From the UHGV virus genome UHGV-0117372: a stretch of 10,031 nt of DNA, one strand, 5' to 3'. The notes under the pieces are model-generated. The model saw only the letters and a program-made list of their open reading frames with translations, was not told where the DNA came from and searched no databases. Both the position numbers and the translations under genes were made by a program. Every line of letters begins with the position of its first letter. Within the stretch, counting starts at the first letter, position 1. Below are positions 8,224-9,296 of the stretch, piece after piece. This stretch comes from a virus.

Positions 8224-8341
8224 AATTATGCCTCACTGTATTGACAACACAGAGCCTGAAGCTCTGACCTACTGTTTCACCCATGATCCATGCTGGGGTA
8301 ATCTAACAACATTGCGCTGTGTGTAAGATGAGCAATGCATA

Positions 8342-9296
8342 GGGAAGGTGCGAATAAGTTCCTGATATGAGATCATCATATTCATCCGGAGCGCATCCCA
8401 GAGGGACATCATGAGCCATCAACTCACCTTCGCCGATAGTGAATTCAGCACTAAGCGCCGTCAGACCCGAAAAGAGATTTTCCTCTCCCGCATGGAGCAG
8501 ATTCTGCCATGGCAGAATATGACCGCTGTCATCGAGCCGTTTTATCCCAAGGCGGGCAATGGCCGACGGCCCTATCCGCTGGAGACCATGCTGCGTATTC
8601 ACTGCATGCAGCATTGGTACAACCTGAGCGACGGTGCCATGGAAGATGCCCTGTACGAAATCGCCTCCATGCGCCTGTTTGCCCGATTATCCCTGGATAG
8701 CGCCCTGCCGGATCGCACCACCATCATGAATTTCCGCCACCTGCTCGAGCAGCATCAACTGGCCCGTCAATTGTTCAAGACCATCAATCGCTGGCTGGCC
8801 GAAGCAGGCGTCATGATGACCCAAGGCACTTTGGTGGATGCCACCATCATTGAGGCACCCAGCTCTACCAAGAACAAAGAGCAGCAACGCGATCCGGAGA
8901 TGCATCAGACCAAGAAAGGCAATCAGTGGCACTTTGGCATGAAGGCCCACATTGGTGTCGATGCCAAGAGTGGCCTGACCCACAGCCTGGTCACCACCGC
9001 GGCCAACGAGCATGACCTCAATCAGCTGGGTAATCTGCTTCATGGAGAGGAGCAATTTGTCTCAGCCGATGCCGGCTACCAAGGAGCGCCACAGCGCGAG
9101 GAGCTGGCCGAGGTGGATGTGGACTGGCTGATCGCCGAGCGTCCCGGCAAGGTAAAAACCTTGAAGCAGCATCCGCGCAAGAACAAAACGGCCATCAACA
9201 TCGAATACATGAAAGCCAGCATCCGTGCCAGGGTGGAGCACCCGTTTCGCATCATCAAGCGGCAGTTCGGCTTCGTGAAAGCCAGATACAAGGGGT
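8342..9296 (+). mobile_element. IS5 insertion sequence, 3'-truncated copy (about 955 bp of the roughly 1.2-kb element; right inverted repeat missing)
   Basis: The left terminal inverted repeat GGAAGGTGCGAATAAG begins at about 8342-8343 and is followed by the canonical IS5 leader and the ins5/InsH-type transposase gene. Match to IS5 ends abruptly after ...AGATACAAGGGGT at about 9296, where IS5 should continue TGCTGAAAAACGATAACC. Confidence 0.9.

Follow-up and report, generated by a model that had tools for sequence, protein, structure and literature searches.

What is an insertion sequence doing directly upstream of coi in a P1-like element, and why does it stop short of its own right end? The stretch of DNA that raises these questions (hereafter, the window) comprises the final 10,031 nt of ERZ1755989 NODE_1613_length_16357_cov_4.43, a SPAdes-style metagenome contig with a coverage of 4.4x, such that the end of the window is also the end of the contig. 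It holds a segment of a P1-like phage-plasmid with phd/doc, a DUF968 gene, lpa, pacA, pacB, an icd-like gene, ant, c1, and coi, and its nearest replicons are phage-plasmids of the RCS47 type, at 99–99.7% identity. An earlier note on this DNA described a truncated IS5 that takes the place of the expected imc and promoter region and that underwent a second rearrangement or deletion after inserting, and it suggested that the element may be a defective or domesticated prophage.

Two things should be kept apart while reading this locus: the insertion and the breakpoint within it. The insertion, an ISKpn26 element in the imcA gene of an RCS47-like phage-plasmid, is real but ordinary, and it has already been annotated. 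The breakpoint joins phage-plasmid DNA to a module known from large Escherichia coli plasmids, and one must ask whether that join was made in a cell or by an assembler.

The immunity region up to the insertion

The c1 repressor gene (7052–7903, minus strand, 283 aa) was taken from the ORF list and corresponds to the gene annotated as C1 in RCS47 and the matching plasmids; its product is identical to C1.100 of P1 at 280 of 283 residues. The C1 inactivator gene, coi (8014–8223, minus strand, 69 aa), comes from the same list, and 67 of its 69 residues are those of P1 Coi. Between pacB and c1 lies an immI-like module (5340–7019) that includes a C1 operator-like site detected by a consensus scan (5347–5363), an isrK-like RNA (5438–5515) and a C4 antisense RNA (5541–5628), both from Rfam, and ant (5901–7019), which encodes a 372-aa Ant, sits beside the icd-like ORF, and adjoins c1. 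Phage P1 is unlike the window in this respect, being devoid of the c4/icd/ant module and carrying c1 directly after pacB.

The annotation of P1 (NC_005856) was projected onto the window by ungapped alignment, window positions being those of the P1 locus (L002) plus 5552. The two sequences are collinear through c1, Pc1/Oc1ab, coi, Oc1c, imcB, and the 3' end of imcA, with approximately 95% identity over 7053–8342 and near-identity over 7990–8342. Megablast matches to P1, P7, SJ46, and others place the end of P1 homology exactly at 8342. The gap between coi and the insertion sequence (8224–8342) is collinear with P1 immC and shows a single mismatch, at 8338; it is as short as had been reported, but it measures 119 nt rather than 118.

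The order of a P1-type immC is retained: c1 and coi lie in tandem, Pc1/Oc1ab separates them, and coi contains Oc1c. The equivalent of the Pc1 promoter (formerly P99a) is predicted by projection from P1 at 7971–8000 on the minus strand, and the bivalent C1 operator Oc1ab (Op99a,b) projects to 7987–8014 on the same strand. Oc1a (7998–8014) is identical to its P1 counterpart and has three mismatches to the operator consensus (0.04 chance matches expected in the window), while Oc1b carries one difference from P1. The Oc1c operator (Op99c; 8170–8186, minus strand) is identical to the annotated P1 site. It is surrounded by a 7-bp inverted repeat (CGTTAGA...TCTAACG; 8175–8194, minus strand), which is the same in P1 and which a consensus scan flagged as terminator-like.

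The imcB gene (8189–8284, minus strand, 31 aa plus stop) is intact and is annotated as such in RCS47; its translation from the window equals P1 ImcB at all 31 residues. What is left of imcA is a 3' remnant (8303–8342, minus strand) made up of the stop codon, 12 codons, and 1 nt, which the RCS47 record calls 'imcA, part 2'. Positions 8303–8341 encode the final 12 ImcA residues and the stop, reading YALLILHTAQCC in the window versus YTLLILHTAQCC in P1, each followed by the stop.

These observations contradict the statement that neither imcA- or imcB-like ORFs nor strong C1 operators exist in front of the insertion: Oc1ab, Oc1c, and Pc1 are conserved. Nor have the imc genes been displaced as a unit; imcA is split, with the insertion sequence inside it and its 5' part absent, but imcB is untouched.

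Beyond 8342, P1 continues with an uninterrupted imcA followed by P1coi/Oc1d, Oc1e, P4cre, and lox; in the window, the homology stops and none of Oc1d/P1coi, Oc1e, P4cre, or lox was found. Judged by this alignment, the 5' two thirds of imcA, P1coi with Oc1d, Oc1e, P4cre, lox, and cre have been displaced by the insertion sequence. The earlier expectation that the insertion would uncouple coi and c1 from their upstream control region (P1coi/Oc1d) and from the lox-cre side was therefore borne out, with c1, Pc1, Oc1ab, coi, Oc1c, and imcB left intact.

ISKpn26 in imcA and its relatives

The insertion sequence begins at 8343, immediately after an ATAG target (8339–8342) that lies within imcA, and its left terminal repeat (8343–8358) is GGAAGGTGCGAATAAG. 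It belongs to the IS5 family, as had been proposed, but it is not IS5 proper: the element is 99–100% identical to copies annotated as the ISKpn26 family versus 93.4% to the IS5 of phage 434, and by this measure it is ISKpn26. The left 949 nt of 1196 are assigned to it (8343–9291, plus strand), and the next four bases (GGGG, 9292–9295) are common to ISKpn26 and to the Tn3-family repeat that follows. The match to complete copies thus runs to 9295, with the first difference at 9296, in agreement with the truncation previously placed at about 9296. In total, some 949–953 of 1196 nt are present, the last 245 nt or so and the right inverted repeat are missing, and the right copy of the IS5-type terminal inverted repeat (GGAAGGTGCGAAYAAG) was found nowhere in the window. 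This ISKpn26 is a partial copy and has no autonomous mobility.

An ORF of 305 aa (8411–9328, plus strand) spans the breakpoint and fuses transposase residues 1–295 to 10 residues and a stop from the Tn3-family repeat. Residues 1–295 match the 326-aa transposase except at three polymorphic residues, the C-terminal 31 residues having been replaced. The product has Pfam domains DDE_Tnp_1 (PF01609) and DUF772 (PF05598) on record and is a DDE transposase of the IS5 type.

The junction between imcA and the insertion sequence is far from unique. One-piece matches cross it in RCS47, phi456, and 81 PLSDB plasmids, versus 562 PLSDB plasmids in which the imcA site is uninterrupted. In the case of RCS47 (FO818745), the insertion site, the orientation, and the left junction are those of the window, with 99.1% identity over 7000–9310, and the record annotates c1, coi, imcB, 'imcA part 2', and an IS5-family transposase (insH). 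RCS47 is unlike the window in that its insertion sequence continues past 9296 with a full-length transposase ORF, followed by IS1 and dmsA cargo; its right end is flanked by TTAG rather than ATAG, and it has C instead of T at 8355.

Closer still are the phage-plasmids with a solo ISKpn26, such as p2-S1-ZIM-01-A (NZ_CP145673) and pLR-62-2_1 (NZ_AP027577), which are 99.7–100% identical to the window up to 9295–9310 and share the T at 8355 and the ATAG target. Unlike the window, they possess a complete element and an ATAG duplication, behind which come the 5' portion of imcA, Oc1d/P1coi, lox, cra, and cre. Complete ISKpn26 copies in the relatives are 1196 nt long, and the target-site duplication that one would wish to see is there: ATAG stands on both sides of the complete copies in p2-S1-ZIM-01-A (L004) and in locus L016, whereas the empty sites of NZ_CP027133 (L005) and P1 have a single ATAG. 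Only the left ATAG is visible in the window. In L004, L016, and phi456 (L020), the rest of the immC upstream region and lox-cre lie directly behind the insertion sequence.

Since the relatives share the junction, and since ATAG flanks their complete copies, behind which imcA resumes and lox, cra, and cre follow, we infer that ISKpn26 in imcA is an inherited marker of the RCS47-like lineage and not a private lesion. The insertion was already known, having been part of the RCS47 annotation since 2014, and both of its junctions are common in public plasmids; a full-text literature search for imcA together with IS5 returned no relevant paper. The element would have transposed into the imcA gene of a P1-like phage-plasmid at ATAG, or it may have arrived within an ISKpn26-dmsABC-ISKpn26 composite, and imcA::ISKpn26 would then have been passed down one common lineage.

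There are some finished plasmids in which this site holds more than a single insertion sequence. In p1-H9 (L019, NZ_CP029181, 2132–10947) and RCS47 (L001, 4344–8309), the ATAG site is occupied by two ISKpn26 copies with dmsABC, a DMSO reductase operon, between them, and each copy has TTAA where it faces the cargo. This arrangement is either a composite transposon or the outcome of IS-mediated capture, and the solo element of the other plasmids may be a recombination product of it. Right junctions outnumber left junctions in PLSDB (n=117 and n=81, respectively). The ISKpn26 resident in imcA is a real site of cargo turnover in phage-plasmids. ISKpn26-mediated deletions have been described in the Y-type phage-plasmid pLAO59 (PMC10272864), as have hybrids of P1-like elements and F plasmids (PMC6906374).

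Some peculiarities of individual relatives should be kept in mind when using them for comparison. The ISKpn26 of p2-S1-ZIM-01-A has a 2-nt (AT) insertion after the position matching window 8435, which brings it to 1198 nt and, falling early in the transposase gene, should cause a frameshift. In phi456 (OR339795), the two halves of the ISKpn26 transposase (4912–5892) are labelled 'putative baseplate hub protein', and IS1 (InsB) replaces lpa, pacA, pacB, and most of ant (1927–3520); this is odd for a phage that is reported to package and plaque.

The breakpoint and the plasmid module behind it

The point at which ISKpn26 ends is occupied by a 38-nt terminal inverted repeat of a Tn3-family transposon (GGGGTCCGCTTGGAAAACGGAAATTATCCCACGCTAAG; 9292–9329, plus strand), which is matched exactly elsewhere. 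In the form GGGG...ACGCTAAG, it stands at the boundary with unrelated DNA; the exact 38-mer adjoins nine different outside flanks in other genomes, and it edges Tn3-family elements in Citrobacter, Providencia, Proteus, Xenorhabdus, Pantoea, Vibrio, and two viral contigs. By these comparisons, it is a genuine transposon terminus. Next comes a degenerate 3' remnant of a Tn3-family tnpA (9330–9660, minus strand), 75% identical to the tnpA ends found beside the same repeat elsewhere and marked by a deletion of about 100 nt; no intact tnpA is present. The window closes with the 3' part of an alpha/beta hydrolase gene (9686–10031, minus strand; WP_000734115.1 in the matching plasmids), which is cut by the contig end.

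All of this is found on large E. coli plasmids. Positions 9200–10031 are 99.6% identical to at least 405 PLSDB plasmids of this kind, and 8343–10031, with the identical breakpoint, occurs on them at 99.5% identity. A good example is the IncF plasmid pEC517_1 (NZ_CP018964), whose module consists of a truncated ISKpn26, the Tn3 remnant, the alpha/beta hydrolase gene, and a DMT transporter gene. From the breakpoint and its 38-nt repeat through the tnpA remnant to the hydrolase gene, the features sit where they do in the window (99.5% identity over 8340–10031), and RefSeq annotates the matching tnpA stretch as a frameshifted, incomplete Tn3-family transposase. The plasmid is unlike the window in its left flank, which is an autotransporter fragment with a TTAG target, and in its ISKpn26 remnant, which shows six substitutions and a 1-nt deletion; two further differences lie at 9827 and 9970.

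An identical breakpoint followed by an identical dead tnpA remnant means that the junction is shared by descent, and we therefore take the apparent truncation of ISKpn26 to be the outer end of the Tn3-family repeat, held in common with the plasmid module. The right 740 nt of the window were joined to the phage-plasmid through approximately 950 nt of shared insertion sequence.

Related remnants occur outside these plasmids. Loci in a Providencia sp. (L008, matching 9287–9817) and Proteus vulgaris (L009, matching 9287–9649) contain the same degenerate Tn3 remnant at 98.7–99.4% identity, with a different outside flank and without ISKpn26; the Providencia locus also has the start of the hydrolase gene. 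These matches in Morganellaceae hint at the origin of the plasmid module. One metagenome scaffold (L018; ENA ERZ28660248 scaffold_25117, 1–1389) starts exactly at the left end of the insertion sequence and shows the same junction of truncated ISKpn26 and Tn3 repeat, with canonical ISKpn26 bases; past the equivalent of window position 9332, it has a different Tn3-family interior, 75% identical, with an apparently intact tnpA end. It is either an ancestral intact insertion or another assembly chimera.

A join in the assembly or in a cell

The possibility that the truncation is an artefact had been raised in two forms. An artefact of windowing was rejected, as the window continues for 735 nt beyond the breakpoint. 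An artefact of assembly is the reading that we slightly favour, namely that a metagenome assembler linked the phage-plasmid and the plasmid module across the ISKpn26 repeat. The phage-plasmid itself would then carry a complete element, with the remainder of imcA, lox, and cre behind it, like its relatives.

The first line of evidence is the rarity of the arrangement. The whole window and 7900–10031 were used as queries against PLSDB (72,556 plasmids) and 5,426 complete E. coli genomes, with a best coverage of 93% and 79%, respectively, and no record in either collection joins both contexts. The exact variant of the window (G at 9231 plus the Tn3 repeat, as a 105-nt pattern) gave no match in GTDB genomes, IMG/VR, or JGI metagenomes, nor does any record there unite the two contexts. 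Counting in the same direction, the exact 305-aa fusion protein is recorded in two contigs only, both of them metagenome assemblies, and in no isolate genome.

The second line is the position at which the two contexts could have met. Within ISKpn26, all of the finished plasmids that have the junction and match best depart from the window at seven sites (8355, 8968, 8989, 9003, 9026, 9092, and 9231), the one at 9003 being a deletion and the other six being substitutions, and at all seven sites the window has the phage-plasmid or canonical base. Because the window is canonical up to 9231, any real exchange with a partner of this kind must have its crossover within 9232–9291, that is, in some 60 of the approximately 940 shared nucleotides, or about 6%. 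ISKpn26 thus keeps the bases of complete copies until 61–64 nt short of the junction, the stretch in common after the last marker being 64 nt (9232–9295). The largest default k of metaSPAdes is 55, though the value used for this contig may differ. A shared stretch of 64 nt exceeds k=55 and, if that k is assumed, would be as expected from a fork in a de Bruijn graph.

Several points weigh against a join made by the assembler. Assemblers usually break at an ambiguous repeat of 950 nt, and passing through it would fit a sample with one path. The differences at 9827 and 9970 suggest a partner variant that has not been sampled and whose ISKpn26 remnant might carry the canonical bases, and the second, independent metagenome scaffold (L018) has just such bases on the same repeat. 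Finished plasmids also show real rearrangements at this same insertion sequence, as seen in the dmsABC cargo, the excess of right over left junctions, and the pLAO59 deletions (PMC10272864).

The same facts speak for the other reading, which we consider plausible though short of an even chance: the ISKpn26 in imcA recombined with the truncated copy in the hydrolase module of a large plasmid sharing the cell, either through homologous recombination of the RecA type or through gene conversion. The product would be a cointegrate of phage-plasmid and plasmid, or a phage-plasmid with its lox-cre side swapped for plasmid cargo. The junction is that of the plasmid module, but the window has a phage-plasmid flank on its left and also shows the phage-plasmid base at 8355; the contig passes through the repeat uninterrupted, finished plasmids lack this version of the hydrolase side, L018 provides a precedent for a canonical-type remnant on the same repeat, and cargo exchange, hybrids (PMC6906374), and deletions (PMC10272864) are all documented. 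Against this stand the absence of the configuration from the plasmids, E. coli genomes, and other collections searched, the need for a crossover in the last 60 or so of 940 nt or else for an unsampled partner, and the low-coverage metagenome source, in which joins across insertion sequences are the classic chimera. Taking these points together, we rate a join in the assembly as somewhat likelier than a join in a cell.

The second rearrangement that the earlier note placed after the insertion should be viewed in this light. The insertion sequence does end early, but the junction was copied exactly from a plasmid module, and its physical linkage to c1 and coi is possible rather than probable. 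The idea that a Tn3-family element inserted independently into the ISKpn26 of the phage-plasmid, happening to hit the very nucleotide used in the plasmid module, fits the genuine transposon terminus at the breakpoint, but it is highly improbable and was rejected, given that the junction is base-identical, that the same deleted tnpA remnant and hydrolase gene lie behind it at 99.7% identity, and that a remnant lacking its transposase is immobile. Tn3-family elements are not so specific in their choice of target.

We advise caution with cases of this kind: an apparent second rearrangement at an insertion sequence in a low-coverage metagenome contig needs read-level support before it is given a biological reading.

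Predicted effect on the c1/coi switch

In P1, C1 is expressed from P1coi and Pc1 and represses both (PMC8546580; P1 annotation); P1coi is the sole known promoter of coi and a second promoter for c1. With the insertion in imcA, at least 1.2 kb of ISKpn26 would lie between coi and P1coi/Oc1d, with the transposase gene antisense to coi. Because transcription from P1coi must cross this distance, little C1-controlled Coi is to be expected: coi would be poorly expressed or not expressed at all from P1coi, c1 would depend on Pc1 autoregulation alone, and the immC switch would be biased toward repression. Induction would then be left to the antirepressor module beside c1 (c4 RNA, the icd-like gene, and ant), and the presence of this module next to immC may compensate for an uncoupled coi. 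A sigma-70 consensus scan of 7880–8520 for an outward promoter at the end of the insertion sequence found none, though the known Pc1 was also missed by the scan.

The phage phi456, which carries the insertion, provides a useful check on this prediction. It is reported to release particles, to form plaques on MC1061, and to be highly spontaneously induced (PMC10967188). The high spontaneous induction is a poor fit to a simple picture of an element locked in lysogeny, and the particles and plaques imply that the insertion does not make its carrier defective.

This brings us back to the defective or domesticated prophage. It is true that the window contains none of P1coi/Oc1d, lox, and cre and that the insertion sequence lacks its right end, but we give this reading almost no credence, given the conserved immC sites and imc sequences, the intact state of phd/doc, lpa, pacA, pacB, c1, and coi, the particles and plaques reported for phi456, and an insertion common to 81 plasmids, most of which have lox-cre right behind a complete ISKpn26.

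What would change if the contig is correct? It would then represent a phage-plasmid/plasmid hybrid formed through the ISKpn26 in imcA, with P1coi/Oc1d and lox-cre lost or relocated and coi outside C1 control, a prospect that we place somewhat below even odds. If it is a cointegrate, the reciprocal ISKpn26 copy would still have P1coi, lox, and cre behind it; if it is a replacement, these would be missing, along with Cre/lox multimer resolution and C1-controlled expression of coi. Such a hybrid would unite a P1-like phage-plasmid with a metabolic module carried as cargo by large conjugative E. coli plasmids, a type so far absent from finished genomes, and imcA::ISKpn26 would be a standing recombination pad for cargo gain in roughly one in eight P1-like plasmids.

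The insertion itself is of modest significance. Of the sequenced P1-like plasmids in which this part of immC survives, approximately 13% (81 versus 562) have a coi that is cut off from its only known promoter. These imcA::ISKpn26 plasmids amount to a natural experiment on what Coi does in the lysis-lysogeny switch of P1, one that seems to have gone unexamined so far, and the same insertion sequence, with its dmsABC composite, is a demonstrated entry point for cargo in phage-plasmids.
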